From NCBI RefSeq assembly GCF_030013595.1, contig NZ_CP122768.1: a DNA stretch of 64,000 bases; one strand, given 5' to 3'. The stretch's first letter is position 1; every line of letters starts with the position of its first letter. The notes under the pieces are model-generated. The model had not been told where the DNA came from. It saw only the letters and a program-made list of their open reading frames with translations, and searched no databases. The translations under genes were made by a program, and so were the position numbers. The stretch comes from Escherichia coli (GTDB lineage: Bacteria > Pseudomonadota > Gammaproteobacteria > Enterobacterales > Enterobacteriaceae). Shown here one piece after another: positions 2,339-46,190 of this stretch.

Positions 2339-2468
2339 ACAGTTACAAGTAGACAATATCCACTAATTTTGTAAGCATTTAACCTATGTCATAACGTGTA
2401 ATCTCTTACCGCAACACAAGACCTCAATATATTCAAATTTTATCTTTATTCCGATATTCAGAGACACA

Positions 2469-3953
2469 ATGCGAAAAATAATTACTCATTTCAAAGTTGT
2501 TTTAACGTTACTTCTACCAGTAACCGTATCTGCCCAGCAGATACAGTGGCAATCCTGTATGGCCAGTCAATTCAACCACTGGTTTGGTGAGGAAAAACCG
2601 TCTCCTGACTTACTATGTGGTTATTTGTCTGTTCCATTAAAATATACAGACACAGGCGGAGATGCTTCTTATGAAAAAAAATCACAAGTCAAACTAGCGT
2701 TGACAAAATTGCCGGCAAAAAGCAAGCATAAAGGAAGTATCCTGATAATAAGTGGTGGTCCCGGGTTACCAGGCATAAATCCTTATATTAACTTTGACTG
2801 GCCAGTCACAAATCTTCGTGAGTCATGGGATATTATTGGATTTGATCCTCGAGGCGTCGGACAGTCCACTCCGACAATAAACTGCCGGCAATCAGATACA
2901 GAGACTCAGGAAAACATAACCGAAAAGCAACAAGTATTAAATAAAATTAATGCCTGTATCCATAATACCGGAGCCGAAGTCATTCGCCATATCGGCTCTA
3001 ACGAGGCTGTATACGATATTGATCGTATTAGGCAAGCCTTGGGGGATAAACAACTGACAGCCGTGGCGTATTCGTATGGAACTCAAATTGCAGCCTTATA
3101 TGCAGAACGTTTTCCCTACAACGTAAGATCTATCGTTCTTGATGGAGTCGTCGATATCGATGACCTGGAGGACAACTTCACATGGCAACTCAAACAGGCA
3201 CAGAGTTATCAGGAAACGTTTGATCGCTTTGCATCCTGGTGTGCGCGTACAAAAAGTTGCCCGCTTTCTTCAGACAGAGATAAGGCAATAACTCACTTCC
3301 ATGAGCTATTATCAAAATTACATCACAAACCTTTATTAGACAGTAAGGGAGAAAATATATCTTCAGGTGAACTCATATCATTAACAACAGACCTTCTGCT
3401 ATGGCGTTCATCATGGCCAACCCTTGCAACTGCCATACGCCAGTTCTCTCAGGGGATTGTCAGTAATGAAATTGAAACTGCGCTCAGTGCTCCGATAGCC
3501 TCAGAAGAGTCAAGCGATGCTTCGGGGGTAATCCTCTGTGTAGATCAGGGGGATGAGCAATTAACACCAGAAGAGCGAAAATCCCGAAAAGACGCTCTTG
3601 CGAATGCCTTCCCGGCTATTAACTTTGACAATGGACGTTCCGATTCACCTGATTTTTGTGAATTATGGCCAATACATAGCGACCTGAACAAAACTCGCCT
3701 GAAAAATACTGTTCTGCCCTCTGGTTTACTGTTTGTAGCACACAAATACGACCCAACAACGCCCTGGATTAATGCCCGTAAGATGGCAGAGAAATTTTCC
3801 AGCCCGTTACTAACAATAAATGGTGATGGGCATACATTAGCTCTCACCGGAGTTAATTTATGTGTAGATAAAGCAGTTGTACATCACCTGATCACTCCAC
3901 AAAAAATAGAAAATATATACTGCCCAGGAAATTCTGAAGCAGAAATACAATAA
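2469..3953 (+). CDS. Secreted alpha/beta-hydrolase fold peptidase (S33 / TAP-like)
   Basis: 494-aa ORF; N-terminal signal peptide; GGPG oxyanion-hole motif (ISGGPGLPG); Ser nucleophile motif AYSYG; occupies the position where K-12 DLP12 has appY. Confidence 0.7.
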   Translation: MRKIITHFKVVLTLLLPVTVSAQQIQWQSCMASQFNHWFGEEKPSPDLLCGYLSVPLKYTDTGGDASYEKKSQVKLALTKLPAKSKHKGSILIISGGPGLPGINPYINFDWPVTNLRESWDIIGFDPRGVGQSTPTINCRQSDTETQENITEKQQVLNKINACIHNTGAEVIRHIGSNEAVYDIDRIRQALGDKQLTAVAYSYGTQIAALYAERFPYNVRSIVLDGVVDIDDLEDNFTWQLKQAQSYQETFDRFASWCARTKSCPLSSDRDKAITHFHELLSKLHHKPLLDSKGENISSGELISLTTDLLLWRSSWPTLATAIRQFSQGIVSNEIETALSAPIASEESSDASGVILCVDQGDEQLTPEERKSRKDALANAFPAINFDNGRSDSPDFCELWPIHSDLNKTRLKNTVLPSGLLFVAHKYDPTTPWINARKMAEKFSSPLLTINGDGHTLALTGVNLCVDKAVVHHLITPQKIENIYCPGNSEAEIQ

Positions 3954-4136: not shown

Positions 4137-4442
4137 TCAATATACATTTTGCACCTTCGAGATAGTAATGGCTGTTACTGTAACATGGGTTACAAACAGC
4201 TTCATACCCAGAGCTACTGATGTATCAACACGATTCAACAATACCCGATATTTATTCCATGCCTCCAGCAACGATCTTTCTTCCTCCGTTGCGATTTCCA
4301 GATCTACAGCATCCTGCAGTGGCGCAATATACTCACTGAATTCCTGGATGTAGAACTGTGTGGTGACGGTCTTCCAGCCATTCGGCTCCTGCTGTATCGA
4401 AGCATACCAGGCTATTTCAATATCGCTATGCTGCGGCAGCAT
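4137..4442 (-). pseudogene. Tail fiber assembly gene remnant (tfaX-like)
   Basis: 101-aa ORF whose N-terminal ~40 aa aligns with the C-terminal region of the Tfa at 5222-5806 (APLQDAxDLEIATE..[18 protein letters not shown]) and then diverges. Confidence 0.6.
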
Positions 4443-4498: not shown

Positions 4499-5167
4499 AT
4501 GGTGAAATTAATGAAAAAAAACACAGATGATGGGGCTAAAATTTACACACCACTTACCCTAAAGCTTTATGACTGGTGGGTTTTGGGAGTATCAAATCGG
4601 CTTGCATGGGGATGTCCTACAAAGGAACACCTTCTTCCACACTTTCTGGAACATTTAGGTAACAACCATCTGGATATTGGTGTTGGAACTGGGTTTTACC
4701 TTACTCACGTACCTGAGAGTAGTCTGATATCTTTAATGGATTTGAACGAAGCTAGCCTGAACGCGGCATCTACAAGGGCTGGGGAATCAAAAATTAAACA
4801 TAAAATTAGCCATGATGTTTTTGAACCTTATCCCGCGGCGTTACATGGTCAATTTGATTCCATTTCCATGTTTTACCTTCTTCACTGCCTGCCTGGAAAT
4901 ATATCTACAAAAAGCTGTGTAATACGCAATGCGGCGCAGGCCTTAACTGACGATGGAACTCTATACGGAGCCACAATTCTTGGCGATGGAGTTGTGCACA
5001 ATAGCTTCGGTCAAAAACTGATGCGCATTTACAATCAGAAAGGCATCTTTTCAAACACAAAAGATTCCGAAGAAGGCTTAACACATATACTCTCAGAGCA
5101 TTTCGAGAATGTTAAAACCAAGGTTCAAGGTACTGTAGTAATGTTTTCCGCTTCAGGGAAAAAATAG
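4499..5167 (+). CDS. Class I SAM-dependent methyltransferase (YbcY-like)
   Basis: 222-aa ORF with the glycine-rich SAM-binding motif DIGVGTG; same position as ybcY between tfa copies in DLP12. Confidence 0.7.
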   Translation: MVKLMKKNTDDGAKIYTPLTLKLYDWWVLGVSNRLAWGCPTKEHLLPHFLEHLGNNHLDIGVGTGFYLTHVPESSLISLMDLNEASLNAASTRAGESKIKHKISHDVFEPYPAALHGQFDSISMFYLLHCLPGNISTKSCVIRNAAQALTDDGTLYGATILGDGVVHNSFGQKLMRIYNQKGIFSNTKDSEEGLTHILSEHFENVKTKVQGTVVMFSASGKK

Positions 5168-5221: not shown

Positions 5222-5806
5222 TTACTCCCTGACAGGGTTCGTAGGCCACTCAATATCAGGTGCAGTTGATGTATCAACACGGTTCAGCAACACCCGATAC
5301 TTTTTCCAGGCTTCCAGCAACGAGGTTTCTCCCTCCGTTGCGATTTCCAGATCTGCAGCATCCTGAAGTGGCGCAATATGCTCACTGGCTACCTGCATCA
5401 GGCTGTTTTTTGTTTCTTCCGCCTCCCGGATCCGGAACAGTTTTTCTGCTTCTGCATCTTTCACCCAGGTTGTGCCGTTCCACTTCTGAAACTCCCCTTC
5501 CGGGGATAACCAGGTGACATTTTCCGGTAATGAGCCGAGTTCAGAAATAAATAACGCGTCGCCGGAAGCCACGTCATAGACGGTTTTACCCCGATGGTCT
5601 TCAACGAGATGCCACGATGCCTCATCACTGTTGAAAACAGCCACAAAGCCAGCCGGAATATCTGGCGGTGCAATATCGGTACTGTTTGCTGGCAGACCTG
5701 TATGAGGCGGAATATATGCGTCACCTTCACCAATAAATTCATTAGTTCCGGCCAGCAGATTATAAATTTTTATGGTCCGTGGTTGTTCACTCATTCTGAA
5801 TGCCAT
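5222..5806 (-). CDS. tfa: Tail fiber assembly protein Tfa
   Basis: 194-aa ORF immediately downstream of stf; lambda Tfa-like sequence. Confidence 0.85.
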
Positions 5807-8800
5807 TATGCAAGCCTCACAATATAGTTAAATGCGATGTTTTTGACGGTGTTTTCCGCGTTACCAGCAGCGTTAACGGTGATGGTGTGTCCATGTGAGC
5901 CAATCGCAACCGAGTGCGTATGAGCACCAATACCGACAGTATGTGCGTGTGCACCTGCGCTTGCAGCAGTGCCGGACAGTGAGTGGGTATGTGCGCCAGC
6001 AGATGATGTTGCATAGTTTTGATTATGCACAACAGACAATCTTGTTGATGCACTACCAGCACCGGAGTTAGCACTAGCCGTGTTCACGTTGGCTAGTGAG
6101 TGTGTGTGTGCTCCAGCCGAGTTTGTAGAGCCGCTCACACTGTGTGTATGTGCCCCGGTGTTATTCGTAGATTTAGTGCCGTAATCAAACGACGATGTGG
6201 TTTTCGTACCCAAATCCGTACTTGATGCGCTGGCGCTGTGGGTGTGCGATTTAATGCCGTCCTGTTCCTGAGACAATACGGCACGACCACTGGCGGGCTT
6301 GCCCTTAATCGTCCAGCCACGCATATCAGGGATCACGCCTGACGGATAAGCAACTGCAAGTTTCGGGTATGCAGATTTGTCAAAAGTCTGCCCCTGCATC
6401 AGGGCATAACCAGACGGAACGGTATCTGATGGCCACGGAATTGGTGCGCCAACTGGGTAGCTTTCTGGTGGAAGATTTTTCGAGGTATAAACTTCTGCCC
6501 AGCCTTCCTCAAAACCATAGCCATCTCTTGAGGAACGGTAGAACAGACCTCCATTTCTGTAATGCGCCTTCATCTGCAGGGTCCGGCAACTTCCGACTCC
6601 GGTATAGAAGTTAACCAGAATATAGCTGTCGCCAGAGCGGGTGACATTGTAAGCGCCTGATTCGGCATTCCAGGGAACGCCACCATCCGCATCGGCATAT
6701 GTATCCGTTGCCCTTCTGGCAAAAGCAGCCACATGCGCGGCGGTTAAAGTAATATCTTTTGAACCATCAAACTCAACCCCAGAAACCAGTCTTGGCGTTT
6801 GCAGCTTTGTTGCTGTCAATGCGTTACCGTTCAGACTTGCAGACAGTTTGGTTCCAATAACCAGTTCGCCGGTTGCGTTATCAATAGCAAACGGTCTTAA
6901 TGTATTCCAGCCACCATAAACATCACCTTGATTGGTAAGCAGCAGGTAAGTTTTAGCGCCATCATTACGCCATAATGCCCCATACTCCCCACCTATCATT
7001 CGAATCTGATTACCACCACGCGCTACAATTTCGTCTGTGGCAAAAAGTTTTTTGCACGACAAGTTATCGTTAACGATTAACGAATGGGACTCATAAAAAC
7101 CACGCCCACTCTTAAAATCAAGGATAACGTCCGCCGCGATACATTCAGTCGCTGGAATTGTTGCCCCAAACTTATAGGTCGTATCATTAACAACGAGATC
7201 AGCACCAGGTGCGGATATTGACAGGCCATCTTCGATAAACGCAAAAACAGGGAAAGCAGCGCCATCAACATAGAACACAGAGCGCAAATCATCGCCCTTA
7301 TTACTCATCATTATTGAGTGGATGGCTCGTTCATTGTTTTGATATTGCCAGAACATTCCATAAGCATAACGCCCCCTGTCAGTCCAGCCACCAGGCATAA
7401 CAAATCCGTTAAACTCGCAGTTATTCATCGGATCGCCTGCGGTTCGCGTTGCCGTGGTGATAATGACCCTTGATGCCAGTTCGCTTACTGAGCCAGCAGA
7501 ACGCATAACAACAACAGGGTAATATTTTCCAGATGTTGCACCTGCAGGAGCGTTAACCCGCACATAACGCATACCACGCTTATCAGCAAAGTCTGTTTTA
7601 CTGACCGCGTTAATGTTGTTCAGGAAGCGTCCCTTATCGGGTATATCAGCGCCGTTCTGGTCTTTCTGCAGACGTTTCTCTGCATTGTCATAGGCTGATT
7701 TTACTGACTTTGGCGTTGCCGCCAGCGTTTCAGACGTACTGTTGGTCGCACTGCTGAGCTGTACTATCCCCTTTTTCGTCGTACTTGCATCCTCAAGCGC
7801 CACGGCGGATGCAATATCCTCTGCCCGTTTAGCTGCTGTCTCGGCGCGCGTTGCCGCGGATTCCGCCGTACTTTTGCTCTGTGCTGCCGCTGTCGCACTG
7901 CCAGCAGCCTCTGTCGCCTTCGTGGATGCCGTCGTGGCGCTGCCCTTCGCTGCTGACGCCTGTCTGGTCGCCTCATCTTTTGAAGCAGACGCAGATGATG
8001 CCGATGACGCCGCCGAACTGGCGGACGATGCCGCTGCCGTTTTTGAGGATTCTGCGCTGGTTTCCGACGCTTTCGCGTTCGTTTCGGATGTCTTCGCTGC
8101 GGATGCAGACCTCGCTGCTGCGCTGGCCTGTTCAGCGGCTTCGCCAGCCTTCGTTGTGGCTGTTGAAGCGGACAATGCAGCGCTTTCTGCCGATTTTCCG
8201 GCGGCGGTGGCACTGGCTGAGGCCTGCCCGGCACTTGTTGACGCTGCACTGGCAGACGACGCAGCCGCTGTTTTTGAGCCTGCCGCAGCTGAGGCGCTCT
8301 GTCCCGCTGCCGTTTCAGAAGACCTGGCGTTCGTCTCGGACGTTTTTGCCGCCTTCGCGGAATTTCCTGCCGCCGTTGCCGAGGAAGCTGCACTACTGGC
8401 GCTCGAGGCTGCGCTCGTTTCTGATGATTTTGCAGCCTCTTTTGAGGCCGCCGCATCCCGGGCCGAGGTCGCAGCTTCTGATGCCTTCGTGGTCGCGGTG
8501 GATGCAGATGTGGCTGCTGATTGTTGTGACGCTGAAGCATTCGTTTCTGACGTTTTCGCCGCACCGGCACTGGTGGCCGCCGCGCTTTTTGAGGACTCTG
8601 CAGCGGCAGCACTTTTTGATGCTTCAGTGGCCTTTGTTGATGCCGTTCCTGCGCTGGAAGACGCTGACTGAGCCGACGAAGCGGCCTGTCCGGCTGACGT
8701 GCTGGCTGCGCGTGCTGAGCCTGCAGCATCAGTCGCATGGGTTGCCGCCTCACGGGCAGATGTGCCGGCATCGCCGGCTGACTTCTTCGCGGCTGCCGTG

Positions 8801-9165
8801 TTCTGTGCCACCACGGACGCGTTACGCGCCACCTCTTCCACCATCAGCTCAAAACGGCGCAGTGCCTCCGGACGGGCATCATCCTCCGTCATGGCACCGA
8901 GAAAATCATTCAGCGTACCGGGTCGGGAATCTTCATACACTGTGATAGTCCCGGCATGTGACGGCGGGAATCCTTCCACCAACAGAATAACGCTGTACTG
9001 ACCGTACTCAACGTCCATACTGTAACGCCCGGCTTCATCCGGATTTTCTGAGGCCAGCGTGTTCACCACCACCGTGGTGCTGTTACGTTTTGCTTTCAGC
9101 TGGATTGTGCAGTTCTGTACCGGTTTTCCTGTGCCGTCTTTCAGTACACCTGAAATCTTTACTGC
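5806..9165 (-). CDS. stf: Side tail fiber protein Stf
   Basis: ~1120-aa ORF; lambda Stf-like N-terminus ([12 protein letters not shown]); long Ala/Ser/Thr-rich repeat region; C-terminal GAHTHS histidine repeats. Confidence 0.85.
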
Positions 9166-9178
9166 CATATTCACCCCA

Positions 9179-9206
9179 CAAAAAAGCCCGCCTGAACCGG
9201 CGGGCT
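9179..9206 (-). terminator. Intrinsic terminator downstream of lom
   Basis: Hairpin agcccgcc-tgaacc-ggcgggct followed by a U-run on the minus strand. Confidence 0.65.
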
Positions 9207-9232: not shown

Positions 9233-9832
9233 TCAGAATTTATAACCGACACCCACGATGAACCCGTCAGTGCGCCAGTCACCGCTGCCGGAGCCTTCAT
9301 AAGCGACGTCAACGGCCACGGATTCGGTCGGGTTAAACTGCACGCCAGCTCCCCACGCCAGAGACGTGTTGCTGTGGCGACCGTCATCACTTCCGGTCAG
9401 CACATCGTGCGTTTTCCCCTTGTTGTCAGTTACGCGGATATAATCTCCGGAGAAAGTCGACACACGGCTGTAAGCCATACCCGCCATCGCATACGCGCTG
9501 AACCATTCATTCACGCGCACAGACGGCCCCGCCATCACGCTGAACCAGCGGTTACGCACGGAATCTTCATGCCAGCGGGTATCGCTGTAATGCGTTTTTT
9601 GCTCATCTTCAGCGTTGGTATAACTGAATGACGTAATCAGCCCCAGCGTGTCCGTAAACTCATAACGGTATTTCACGTTAATCCCGTTCAGATTATCGCT
9701 GCCGGGAGCGTTCGTACGGGCATGAAGATACCCTGCGCTCAGTGTGGCCTGCTGCTCAGACGCCCATGCAGGCGCACCGGATACGGCCAGACAGATGGCT
9801 GCGGACAAAATGGCTGCACAAACTTTACGCAT
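9233..9832 (-). CDS. lom: Lom-like outer membrane protein (Ail/Lom family)
   Basis: 199-aa ORF with signal peptide; C-terminus YEGSGSGDWRTDGFIVGVGYKF as in lambda Lom. Confidence 0.85.
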   Translation of the reverse strand: MRKVCAAILSAAICLAVSGAPAWASEQQATLSAGYLHARTNAPGSDNLNGINVKYRYEFTDTLGLITSFSYTNAEDEQKTHYSDTRWHEDSVRNRWFSVMAGPSVRVNEWFSAYAMAGMAYSRVSTFSGDYIRVTDNKGKTHDVLTGSDDGRHSNTSLAWGAGVQFNPTESVAVDVAYEGSGSGDWRTDGFIVGVGYKF

Positions 9833-9899
9833 AATTACCTCTCGCTTTTCTGCAATAAAAAAGGCGCCATTTCTGGCGCCCGTATATGGGTTATAAAAT

Positions 9900-12800
9900 T
9901 CAGCTGATACTGATGCCTGCGGTGGCTTTCTTCATCACCACAACCAGCAAATCGCTGATACTTGCTGTGGGATACCAGTTATTTACCAGCCATGCTGACA
10001 CCGAAAACTCCAGTGTCATGTGACCGTGACCGGCAGGCATATCAATAACACCACTGTAAATCAGCGTATTATCCAGCGCGGTACGGTTATAAATTTCAGC
10101 ACCGTTTTTCCGTACTATCAGACGGCATGAGGAGTAAATATCAGTATGCTCTTTCTCATGTTTAGCGCCGCTGAATGCCACCGCCGGAATAACAATCTGC
10201 CGGTCAAACGGCTGATCGTCATAAACCCTGACGGTGATGGTCCCTGATGGCCACCGTTCCGGTGCACGGGAGTCCCGGGGGAAAGCTTTGCCCACTGTTT
10301 TAACGAGATCGCCTTCAATCTGGTTCGCGGACAGTTTTCCCAGAACCCGACAGTTCTCGTTAATCGTGACGTTGTTGAGCGTCCCGGAGTTCGCATTCAC
10401 GTTACCGCTGATATCGGCATTTTTCGCCGTCAGCCGCCCGTCCGGTGTCAGGGAAAATGCCGGTGGATTTCCGCCGCTGGTAATGGTGGGAGCCGTCAGG
10501 CGTTTCAGGAACACGTCGTTCATGAATATCTGATCGCCCTGACCAACAAACATCGGCTTTGTGTTGCCATTCGCAGGATTAATCATCGCAATCCGGTCAG
10601 CAGCCAGAAGCACCTGACTCTGCATACCTGCTGGCGTATTCTCAATACCGGCTCCGATACCCGCAATATAAAGGCGTCCGTCCTTCATCTGCTGCAGTTT
10701 CACGGCCCACATGCTGTTCAGGTTATTATTTGTATCAACCTGAACTTTCTGTATCTGCTGGATTGCCGCGCTCTGATTTTCCAGTTTCTTATTGACGGTC
10801 TGTGTGATTTCATTGCTGACATCCGTAATGGACGTCCTGATTTCAGCCAGGTCAGGCGCAAGCTGATCGTTATCAATCTGCGTCCACAGCTCCTGAGCCA
10901 GATGGGTTTTCCCTATCTCGCCTTTGAAAAAATCCAGATAGCCGGATGCGTCATCACTCGGCTGACCGACAGCCTCCACGAATGCCGATTTGCCAACAGT
11001 GTTCACACTGCGAACGTAAAAATAATAATCATGGCCCGGCTTAATATTGATACTGGCAGCTATCCAGTACAGCGCCGTACCAAGATAGCGCGCTGTGGTT
11101 TCAACCTGCCTGATATCCGCAATCCGCTTTTCCGAGAACCAGAACTCAAACTGTACCGTCGGATCATAAACGGCAAGATGCGGCGTGGCGGTTATCTGAA
11201 AATAGCCCGGCGTCAGCTCAATCCGCGACGGTGCTGCCGGTGCGGCAATCCGGAACGATACCGATGCCGGATCGCCCTGCTGTCCCCACGCATTTACCGC
11301 CCGGACTGTCAGCCTGTAGTTCCCCAGCGCCAGCTGCCTGAAGCGGTATGTGGTTTCCGTCGTCCGGGCCGTGCTGACCAGCCGCTCACTGCCGTCATCG
11401 GCGGCCACGGTCAGGCGAAGCATAAAGCTCACACCCTTCACCACCTTCGGCGTGTCCCAGCGCGCCAGCACCTGATACTCCCCACTGTCTGCGGTGACTT
11501 CTGCGGTCAGGTGCTGCACCGCTGGCGGCGTGACACCATTCACCGTGCCGCTCTGGTCGCCGTCAAAGTGCGCCCCGTTATCCACGATGGCTTCTTTCTC
11601 CGGTACATGCTGCACGGCAGTGATGGCATACGTGCCGTCATCGTTCTCACGGATACTCACACAGCGGAACAGGCGCTGGCGCAACGTCGGCAGCTTCAGC
11701 CCCCACACGCTGTATTCTGCAACGCCGTCAGGAACACGGCTCACTTTCACCTTCACACCGTCGGTGACGGACTGAACCTCCACGCTGACCGGATTGCCAC
11801 TTCCGTCAACCAGGCTTATCAGCGTGGTACCGGAGGATGGCAGCGTGATTTCACGGTCGAGCGTCAGCGTCCGGGTCTGGCTGTTCACCGCCAGCACGCG
11901 CCCGCCGGTGCTGATACCGGCATAGTCATCATCGCAGATTTCAATGACATCGCCCGGCACATGGCGAAGCCCTTCTGCGCCCACGCTGAAATCCACGGTC
12001 TGCGTTTCCAGCAGTTCCGTTTTAATCAGCCACAGCCCGGCGCGGTGTGCCTGCCCCCGGCTGGTACAGCCAAAGGCATCCATCTTCGTAACATTACGAC
12101 CGTAACGGGCAATGGCCTGCGTATCTTCAACAAGCTCTGTCGCCGTCTCCCAGCCGTTATCCGGGTCAATCCAGTTCACCTCAACGGCATTATGGCGGTC
12201 CTTCAGGGCGCTGAAGCTGTAGCGGAACGGCGCGCCATCATCCGGCATCACCACATTACTGCGGTTATAGGTCCACACCTTATCCGACGGTCGGTCCTGC
12301 ACGAACGTCAGCGTCTGCCCGTTCCATACCGGCATACAGCGCATCGCCGAGCAGAAATCGCTGAGCACATCCCACGCCTTACGTTGTGTGGTCAGCCAGG
12401 CATTACAGGTGATGCGCGGCTCCGTGCCGCCAAAACCGTCCGGCACCGACTGGTCGCAGTACTGGCCGATGACATACAGCGCCCATTTATCCACATCTGC
12501 CGCACCAAGACGTTTCCCCATGCCGTAGCGCGGATGGGTCAGCATATCCCACAGACACCAGGCCATGTTGTTGCTGTATGCTGGCTTAAACGTTCCATCC
12601 CAGATACCGCTGTATTGCCGCGTCTGCGGGTTATAGTTCGACGGCACCTGCAGAATGCGCCCGCGCAGATGATAATTACGGCTCACCTGCTGGCTGCCGA
12701 ACTGCTCCGAGTCCACCTGCACGCCGACCAGTGCCGTGTTCGGGTAGCACTGTTTCACATCTATAATTTCGGTGTATGACGACCAGAGCGTTTTGTTCTG

Positions 12801-13379
12801 CAGCTGGTCTGTGGTGCTGTCCGGCGTCATCCTGCGCATCCGGATACTGAACGGGCGCGGCGGCAGGTTATCCACCACCACCGAGGCCAGATACTGCGAG
12901 GTGGTTTTGCCCTTAATGGTGATGTCTTTTTCCGTCACCCAGCCACCGTTACGTTGTATCTGAACCAGCAGGCGGACTTCCGATGGATTCCTGTCACCCT
13001 TTGAGGTGGTTTCCACCAGTGCCTGCACACCGAAGGTAAAGCGCAGTCGGTCGATGTTTGCCGACGTGATGGCGCGGGTGATCGGCGTGTCGTATTTCAC
13101 TTCCGTACCCAGCACCGTCTCGGAGCCGGAGGATTCAAATCCCTCCGGCGGAGTCTGCTCCTGCTCACCAGCCCGGAACACCACCGTGACACCGGCGATG
13201 TTGGTATTCCCCTCACTGTCCAGCACCGGCGTACTGTTCAGCAGCACGCTTTTTAATCCATCCACCGGACCTTCAATCGGCCCTTCACTGATGGCATCAA
13301 TCACACTCAGCAACTGCGTGGATTTCAGGTTGTCCTTCGCTTCGCGCGGGGTATGCCCCTTACTGCTGCCTTTACCCAT
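9900..13379 (-). CDS. J: Tail tip / host specificity protein J
   Basis: 1159-aa ORF in lambda J position between I and lom. Confidence 0.9.
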
Positions 13380-24463: not shown

Positions 24464-28144
<3,681 letters not shown>

Positions 28145-28170
<26 letters not shown>

Positions 28171-46113: not shown

Positions 46114-46190
46114 TGGCGCGCCCTGCAGGATTCGAACCTGCGGCCCACGACTTAGAAGGTCGTTGCTCTATCCAACTGAGCTAAGGGCGC
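46114..46190 (-). tRNA. argU: tRNA-Arg (UCU) argU
   Basis: Reverse complement gcgcccttagctcagttggatagagcaacgaccttctaagtcgtgggccgcaggttcgaatcctgcagggcgcgcca is a cloverleaf with anticodon TCT and terminal CCA. Confidence 0.9.

Follow-up and report, generated by a model that had tools for sequence, protein, structure and literature searches.

The gene on the minus strand at positions 5806-9168 of the 64,000-nucleotide Escherichia coli stretch analysed here (the window) is very probably best explained as that of a modular, mosaic StfR-type lambdoid side tail fibre, with a trimeric coiled-coil shaft and an iron-stapled gp37-type receptor-binding tip. The earlier note had called it a side tail fibre, and this identification is borne out by the J-lom-stf-tfa synteny, by a full-model match of its N-terminus to Pfam phage_tail_N (PF08400, E=9.5e-72), by 98% identity to K-12 StfR, and by homology to lambda Stf at both ends. 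Judged by its sequence, the gene is ordinary and already well known, an intact and near-identical allele of the catalogued E. coli prophage gene StfR: close homologues carry the RefSeq name stfR, a near-full-length copy occurs in 1,230 of 5,426 complete E. coli genomes, and the isolated phages 2H10, mEp332, Kati and ev099 match at 93-95% identity over the full length. As parts of Stf have solved or modelled homologues, it carries little weight as a discovery; its practical value is that of a clean, intact modular Stf scaffold of the type used in host-range engineering of lambda-based vectors.

The open reading frame (5806..9174, minus) begins with GTG, and an ATG lies further in at 9168. The RefSeq homologues and the solved lambda Stf chain (MAVKISG...) start at the ATG, and therefore the gene is taken from the sequence comparison to span 5806-9168 and to encode 1,120 residues. 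The lower boundary of the previously given span, 5806-9165, thus holds, while its upper end falls 3 nt, or one codon, short. The stop codon occupies 5806-5808, and base 5806 is shared with the start codon of tfa (5222..5806, minus), which encodes a 194-residue tail fibre assembly chaperone (PF02413, Caudo_TAP, E=9.6e-44) that is 94% identical to TfaR and, equally, to lambda Tfa. The order J - lom - stf - tfa, read in the late operon from the open reading frame map and Pfam, is likewise annotated in NZ_CP027586, K-12 Rac and lambda. Between lom and stf, a terminator-like hairpin with a T-run (9175..9206, minus) stops some 10 nt upstream of the stf ATG and is conserved in lambda, which shares both the lom-hairpin-stf junction and the placement of stf after J and lom.

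The closest known relative is the K-12 Rac StfR (b1372), which has the same length of 1,120 residues, 1101 of them identical, with 19 substitutions and no gaps, the same domain order and an identical tip insert. The surroundings differ. Here stf belongs not to Rac but to a DLP12-type lambdoid prophage, integrated at tRNA-Arg(TCT)/argU beside ompT-envY, namely the same module on a different prophage backbone; lom is intact, whereas it is disrupted by IS5 in K-12; and downstream lie a SAM-methyltransferase cassette and a tfa relic, where K-12 Rac has the pinR invertase. We know of no demonstrated function for the K-12 StfR orthologue, which resides in a cryptic prophage.

Whether this prophage still deploys its fibre is a separate matter. 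Codon 443 of terL, encoding the terminase large subunit, is an in-frame TAG, where a close homologue has GAG, and therefore the prophage may not deploy the fibre, which in the source genome might never become part of infectious particles. By this reading, stf would be an intact but stranded relic within a packaging-defective prophage, its sole role being a reservoir of modules for infecting lambdoid phages. Besides the amber codon, this is favoured by the residence of K-12 StfR in the cryptic Rac, by the Red-mediated recombination through which lambda picks up Rac stfR/tfaR sequence (PMC3945230), and by the abundance of places matching stf in E. coli genomes (median 3 per genome, at most 16). 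On the other hand, the stf frame runs without interruption and is 98-99% conserved, the other late genes that were inspected all have full-length open reading frames, one amber codon might have arisen recently or be open to suppression, and the same fibre type occurs in active phages. We therefore consider the relic reading a serious possibility, but one that falls short of even chances. It is compatible with the molecular description of the fibre and differs on present-day function only.

The fibre itself is built from modules with separate affinities. First, the N-terminal tail-attachment domain (aa 1-134; 8767..9168, minus) aligns with 9e7m, the lambda Stf chain of the virion structure (E=2e-51). 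Ur-lambda Stf (774 aa; split by a frameshift into orf-401 and orf-314 in lambda PaPa) is 80% identical over aa 1-352, which cover the collar domain and the start of the coiled coil. The likeness extends to a conserved junction motif (aa 467-487; 7708..7770, minus), common to lambda Stf and the Mu tail fibre S, and the lambda homology stops just past it. There, a StfR-specific middle module of about 400 residues (aa ~495-901; 6466..7686, minus), absent from lambda Stf, stands in place of the shorter distal region of lambda, and lambda homology returns in the gp37-like tip at 72% identity. The lambda comparison suggested earlier thus succeeded at both ends of the protein. Within the middle module are a T4 gp34-like trimerisation domain (PF21446, E=7e-27) and Mu S-like segments (PDB 4uxe/5nxf, 8ju3, 5yvq): Stf residues 706-777 match the C-terminal trimerisation domain of T4 gp34 (4uxe, 5nxf), and aa 441-521, the region of the junction motif, together with aa 812-907 match phage Mu tail fibre S (5yvq, 8ju3). 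The likeness to Mu S and T4 gp34 is limited to those modules and does not extend to the overall architecture or the tips. From these solved homologues, the Stf chains would be expected to trimerise. The e14 fibres, also named for comparison, gave an essentially negative result: no similarity was seen for StfP (E=0.086), and StfE is alike only in the collar (38%) and the final 20 residues. Since no invertase open reading frame was found downstream of tfa either, an invertible fibre of the e14 type (StfE/StfP with Pin) is rejected.

The tip is a receptor-binding collar domain and needle like those of T4 gp37 (aa 902-1120; 5809..6465, minus; Pfam Collar and Phage_fiber). The last 219 residues align with the crystallised gp37 tip 2XGF (E=2e-88), the alignment beginning at the collar (phage tail collar domain PF07484, E=4.9e-11), and reach 71% identity over 216 aa; the C-terminal 17 residues are identical bar two. 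N-terminal of the collar the two proteins are unrelated, and the carriers differ as well, a siphovirus side fibre here and a myovirus long fibre in T4. The histidine repeats reported earlier are confirmed, with GAHTHS in four exact copies (6139-6156, 6097-6114, 5980-5997 and 5911-5928) and GAHAHT in one (5938-5955), which together with SHTHS and SHGHT make seven HxH motifs spanning 5887..6246 (minus; first His at aa 975, 1007, 1021, 1060, 1074, 1083 and 1092). Their proposed resemblance to metal-binding fibre tips is strongly upheld: the seven motifs align in register and one-to-one with the Fe-coordinating motifs of gp37, all 14 of their histidines are invariant in a three-way alignment of the window Stf, lambda and T4, and seven HxH motifs are kept in 119 of 120 close homologues. 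Lambda has in addition a SFDYGTKTTG duplication and an eighth HxH. In gp37, the HxH motifs coordinate seven iron atoms in the needle (PMC6957217), and by analogy with that structure, the histidines of three Stf chains would provide octahedral Fe2+ coordination. The tip fold is assigned here from sequence identity to 2XGF: an AlphaFold2 monomer model of the C-terminal 350 residues (29-sequence alignment) reached a pLDDT of 37.8, too low for fold matches to carry meaning.

Between HxH motifs 3 and 4 lies a tip insert of 34 residues (aa 1024-1057; 5998..6099, minus), at the position of gp37 932-959, which is the tip subdomain that contacts the receptor (PMC6957217). The insert is unrelated in sequence to those of T4 and lambda, and in the motif 3-4 segment none of the gp37 OmpC/LPS contacts (I933, N937, G938, G940, G942, G943, K945, S947, Y949, I951, Y953), nor any other column of the subdomain, is invariant. 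Homologues carry varied tip inserts within the conserved seven-HxH scaffold, variants of 46, 50 and 51 aa among them, and the insert is the probable specificity determinant. The receptor of lambda Stf is OmpC (PMC12617516). As the insert resembles neither that of T4 nor that of lambda, the receptor here is probably not one contacted in the same way as OmpC or the LPS glucose; no established receptor for a StfR-type tip insert was found in the literature.

An Ala/Ser/Thr-rich tract (aa 125-453; 7810..8796, minus) consists of 47 uninterrupted heptads with the consensus [TS][AS]A[AS][TS]SA, one Ala being invariant, and the combined A, S and T content is 70-80% in residues ~151-450. Residue autocorrelation peaks at each multiple of 7 through lag 63 (z = 7-11 relative to 500 shuffles). 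The phase is unbroken throughout, and the invariant Ala falls in line with the core residues (F/V/V and L/V) of the canonical heptads that come before the tract. The "long repeat region" of the earlier note therefore stands as an Ala/Ser/Thr-rich repeat of the protein, but not as a tandem repeat of the DNA: Tandem Repeats Finder returned on the gene just two weak short arrays, one of period 21, and a DNA repeat search gave degenerate families of 60-80% identity, spaced mostly by multiples of 21 nt. The longest exact direct repeat in the tract is 12 nt, matching the codon-shuffled expectation of 12.1 +/- 1.3. We therefore reject tandem repeat DNA and ascribe the periodicity to protein-level heptads.

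We propose that the tract is a trimeric alpha-helical coiled-coil shaft. The heptad periodicity and a predicted helix are present in the tract itself, as an AlphaFold2 single-sequence model makes aa 98-482 a single unbroken helix (mean pLDDT 68), and the trimeric state is taken from Ur-lambda Stf, which was modelled from cryo-ET and AlphaFold3 as trimeric, its proximal coiled coil taking up residues 102-393 (PMC12617516). The alternative, a linker that is disordered and of low complexity, or else a fibre with beta structure, could appeal to a Ser/Thr/Gly-rich composition that does not classically favour helices, and to the structure-sequence search of the PDB, which found no match for aa ~97-442; but neither form would readily account for a strict seven-residue periodicity kept over 47 heptads, the continuous predicted helix, the coiled coil modelled in the 80%-identical lambda segment (PMC12617516), and a heptad register preserved in length variants. 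We reject it as very unlikely and retain the coiled coil.

These length variants emerged in two stages. Among the top 120 homologues, the tract-length test was uninformative, with 113 of the 117 that have both anchor motifs sharing one length, and it was then run on 50%-identity representatives. There, tract lengths are quantised in heptads, five of six length classes being in register (P=3e-4) at 15, 16, 29, 31 and 32 heptads shorter than the 47-heptad tract here, which is the longest class seen; the sixth class, at a difference of 208 aa, is out of register and has a heptad phase shift within its tract. The shorter-shaft proteins keep the same N-terminal anchor and junction motif. Lambda has 32 heptads, which the shaft here exceeds by 15 (105 aa); in a coiled coil, the difference would amount to about 15 nm. 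Heptad-quantised shaft length offers a simple handle on fibre reach that is amenable to test, and we tentatively suggest that it may be a tunable trait, which together with the 34-residue tip insert could give the fibre a different reach and a non-OmpC receptor.

Based on these comparisons, we propose that the N-terminal domains of twelve chains (four trimers) would dock as a collar on the tail tip, as in Ur-lambda, where this domain forms a dodecameric collar (PMC12617516), and that the heptad tract would form a shaft of ~50 nm with an Ala/Ser core. The neighbouring Tfa chaperone, whose relationship to gp38 has been noted (PMC9659904), would fold the Stf tip, in which each HxH triplet of the trimer would coordinate one Fe2+ (seven in total), stapling the interdigitated needle. 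The insert at the needle end could then bind an outer-membrane receptor reversibly and so accelerate adsorption ahead of the binding of J to its own receptor. The gene is a mosaic that swaps modules with other prophages at domain borders, and across relatives its shaft varies by whole heptads.

The suggestion that the repeat DNA is a likely recombination target is supported for the gene, with one qualification that concerns the tract. Experiments have yielded hybrids of lambda with Rac stfR/tfaR (PMC3945230), homology breaks off at domain borders as well as within the tract, and tract lengths change by heptads. The tract consists of protein-level heptads and has no long exact DNA repeats, and therefore, as read from the sequence, it makes no exceptionally favourable substrate for homologous recombination within the gene. 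Recombination at the "His box" of T-even phages, reportedly described by Tetart et al. in 1998, was not used as evidence here.

Finally, three long open reading frames overlap the tract in other frames within 7742..8945, at 7742-8671 (plus, 309 aa), 7764-8771 (minus, 335 aa) and 7851-8945 (plus, 364 aa). The earlier note was right to call such frames spurious, because the tract, owing to the codons it uses, has hardly any stops in three alternative frames: stops in the five alternative frames number 0, 8 / 25, 1, 1 in the tract versus 14, 35 / 9, 12, 19 in a non-tract segment of the same size. That one or more of them is a real embedded gene has only their length in its favour and is hardly credible, as all three map precisely onto the stop-poor tract and translate into low-complexity mirror images of the Ala/Ser codons, no RefSeq homologue has them annotated, and the changes of 15-32 heptads between relatives would truncate them. 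In annotation, these frames should not be called genes.

The stf gene, which encodes the StfR-type side tail fibre under study, lies at 5806-9168 on the minus strand and specifies 1,120 aa. The minus-strand ORF runs from a GTG at 9174 to 5806, with the ATG at 9168 as its third codon, and we place the start at this ATG because RefSeq homologues begin at its equivalent and the solved lambda Stf chain opens with MAVKISG; the limit of 5806 in the earlier note was right, but its 9165 was one codon short. Its assignment as a side tail fibre is well founded, as 1101/1120 residues are identical to E. coli K-12 Rac StfR with zero gaps, the PHROGs matches are to tail-fibre families only, and Pfam places phage_tail_N at aa 3-136 of the GTG-numbered ORF and also detects Gp34_trimer, Collar and the 14-residue Phage_fiber repeat. 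Among 5,426 complete E. coli genomes, 5,173 contain a match to the stf DNA and 1,230 contain 80% or more of its length; the best match is 99.4% identical and annotated stfR, and the isolated lambdoid phages 2H10, mEp332, Kati, ev099 and PhiR34_1 carry full-length fibres 93-95% identical to Stf. The gene is an already known, ordinary object; the observation is confirmed, and its interpretation is supported with two corrections, namely that the start is 9168 and that the repeat consists of heptads, not DNA repeats. NCBI records give several partial StfR-like proteins (P0010, P0019, P0029, P0033, P0327 and P0345) the name 'short-chain fatty acid transporter', evidently a spreading annotation error.

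Residues ~151-450 of Stf are 70-80% Ala+Ser+Thr, and residue autocorrelation peaks at all multiples of 7 up to lag 63 (z = 7-11 versus shuffles), with none between. Written in rows of seven, this tract (aa 125-453) resolves into 47 consecutive heptads of consensus [TS][AS]A[AS][TS]SA, with Ala at position 3 in 47/47, and Ser at position 6 in 36 and Ala at position 7 in 33 of the 45-46 heptads counted. Because the three preceding heptads carry F/V/V at position 3, and the first two also L/V at position 7, row positions 7 and 3 are read as coiled-coil a and d, and the tract would be, judging from its sequence, a coiled coil whose core, made of Ala, is unusually small. AlphaFold2 (single sequence) gives one unbroken helix over aa 98-482 (mean pLDDT 68). 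For the Ur-lambda Stf trimer, a proximal coiled coil has been modelled over residues 102-393 (PMC12617516). The DNA-level repeat is weak: Tandem Repeats Finder detects two short arrays in stf, one with period 21, the direct-repeat families reach 60-80% identity and are mostly spaced by multiples of 21, and the longest exact repeat in the tract is 12 nt versus 12.1 ± 1.3 in codon-shuffled controls. Therefore, the tract represents a selected protein periodicity and not recently duplicated DNA, and the Ala/Ser/Thr-rich repeat previously noted stands for the protein but not for the DNA. The accompanying claim that the tract yields spurious ORFs in other frames holds: three such ORFs of 309-364 aa overlie it, are without annotation in RefSeq homologues, and are by-products of GCN/TCN/ACN codon usage. 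Stops are few in three alternative frames (coding strand, 0 and 8; opposite strand, 25, 1 and 1), whereas a same-size non-tract piece of stf has 14 and 35, and 9, 12 and 19, respectively; the tract has a GC of 0.60-0.63 and a strong AT skew.

The last 219 aa of Stf (the tip, collar plus needle, aa 902-1120) match the crystallised T4 gp37 tip (2XGF) with E=2e-88. In a three-way alignment of Stf, lambda Stf and gp37, none of the 14 His in the seven HxH motifs varies, and the gp37 motifs supply the ligands of seven iron atoms along its needle (PMC6957217), so the proposed resemblance to metal-binding fibre tips is borne out. Adding 784 to the 2XGF chain index gives the gp37 numbering of that paper (H929, Y932, I933, N937 and others), in which the "tip" subdomain 932-959 bears the LPS and OmpC contact residues (PMC6957217). 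The Stf segment at this position, between HxH motifs 3 and 4, is a 34-aa insert with zero invariant columns. The seven HxH are retained in 119/120 close C-terminal homologues, and the insert, retrievable in 32 of the 120, takes at least four unrelated forms (34, 46, 50 and 51 aa). For the T4/lambda receptor-binding family, it has already been described that the scaffold is conserved, that divergence concentrates in the specificity segment and that receptors differ among members (PMC9659904). The AlphaFold2 monomer model of the C-terminal 350 aa has a low pLDDT (37.8), as expected for an interdigitated trimer.

Unlike the window Stf with its seven HxH, lambda Stf has a 10-aa tip duplication and an eighth HxH of its own. 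Its homology to the window Stf halts just past the junction, a conserved 21-aa motif after the tract (aa 467-487), and restarts at the collar, while the ~400 aa between lack lambda homology and contain two Mu S-like segments and a trimerisation-type domain as in T4 gp34. The window tract is also longer than that of lambda by exactly 105 aa, or 15 heptads. Of the C-terminal comparisons suggested earlier, those with T4 gp37 and lambda Stf hold and that with e14 is essentially negative, since StfP shows no relation to Stf (E=0.086) and similarity to the StfE fragment is confined to the collar (38%) and the final 20 residues.

In a spread sample of E. coli genomes, the recurrent end points of homology to stf are nt 356 (N-domain end), 848 (within the tract), 1343-1466 (tract end and junction), 1538/1764 and 2719-2734 (collar start). 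Grouping the 50%-identity representatives that contain the two flanking anchors by the distance between these anchors gives six classes apart from the reference one; five of the six differ from the window Stf, itself in the longest class, by whole heptads (-15, -16, -29, -31 and -32; binomial P=3e-4). The 12 sequenced hybrids from Red-mediated recombination of lambda with the Rac stfR/tfaR region all differed (PMC3945230). From these homology ends, heptad-sized classes and hybrids, stf is a modular mosaic whose tract length changes in register. Hence the suggestion of a recombination target applies to exchange at the gene level, as the Red hybrids and homology ends indicate, and not to the tract as a DNA-repeat substrate, which is without long exact repeats and is just one among several exchange zones. 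On the E. coli plasmids NZ_CP070908, NZ_CP146657, NZ_JBVDMG010000001 and NZ_CP075059 (100-200 kb), 'phage tail protein' genes match stf at 88-96% DNA identity, some over tract and junction (query nt 540-1565), others over a portion of the middle module (nt 2404-3038); from these matches, fibre modules appear to be shared with plasmid-borne phage-like elements.

The host prophage is a DLP12-type lambdoid element at tRNA-Arg(TCT) (46114-46190) with the integrase alongside, and ompT and envY lie beyond its fibre end. The stretch ~4100-46200 is essentially the full-length form of a prophage surviving in K-12 only as the DLP12 remnant, with the order, via the annotated homologue, intD by argU, quuD, a porin gene, essD/rrrD/rzpD, bor and nohD, followed by lambda-like head and tail genes. 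Both stf and the tail-fibre assembly gene tfa are intact. The terminase large-subunit gene terL (26245-28170, minus strand) has an in-frame amber TAG at codon 443 (26842-26844) versus GAG in the closest homologous prophage, NZ_CP027586, and the prophage is probably packaging-defective. With this stop in terL, the fibre may not be deployed from this locus, which would then serve mainly as a module reservoir.

Directly downstream of stf, with a one-base overlap, tfa (5222-5806, minus strand) encodes a 194-aa Caudo_TAP tail-fibre assembly protein; a full-length Rfam IS009 (RF02111) match (5265-5463, minus strand, 225.7 bits) lies wholly within it, in the coding orientation, and may reflect either a separate RNA or an Rfam family derived from tfa itself. 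Next to tfa is a class I SAM-methyltransferase gene of low GC (0.42; 4499-5167, plus strand), and past it, downstream, lies a truncated second tfa 3′ end (4137-4442, minus strand). This places the cassette between the intact tfa and a relic on the opposite strand to it, and suggests that recombination at tfa 3′ ends inserted or exchanged it. Upstream of stf, the J-like tail-tip gene (9900-13379, minus strand) encodes 1,159 aa, against 1,132 aa (3,399 nt) for that of NZ_CP027586, otherwise the closest prophage, and this central-fibre gene may have a different C-terminal receptor-binding part. Between J and stf, the Ail/Lom gene lom (9233-9832, minus strand) has a terminator-like GC hairpin with a T-run on either side of it on the minus strand (9862-9881 and 9185-9206), which fits, by our own reading, an insert in the late operon that is self-contained and expressed in the lysogen; the second hairpin stops ~10 nt short of the stf start and is kept in lambda with loop and stem changes.
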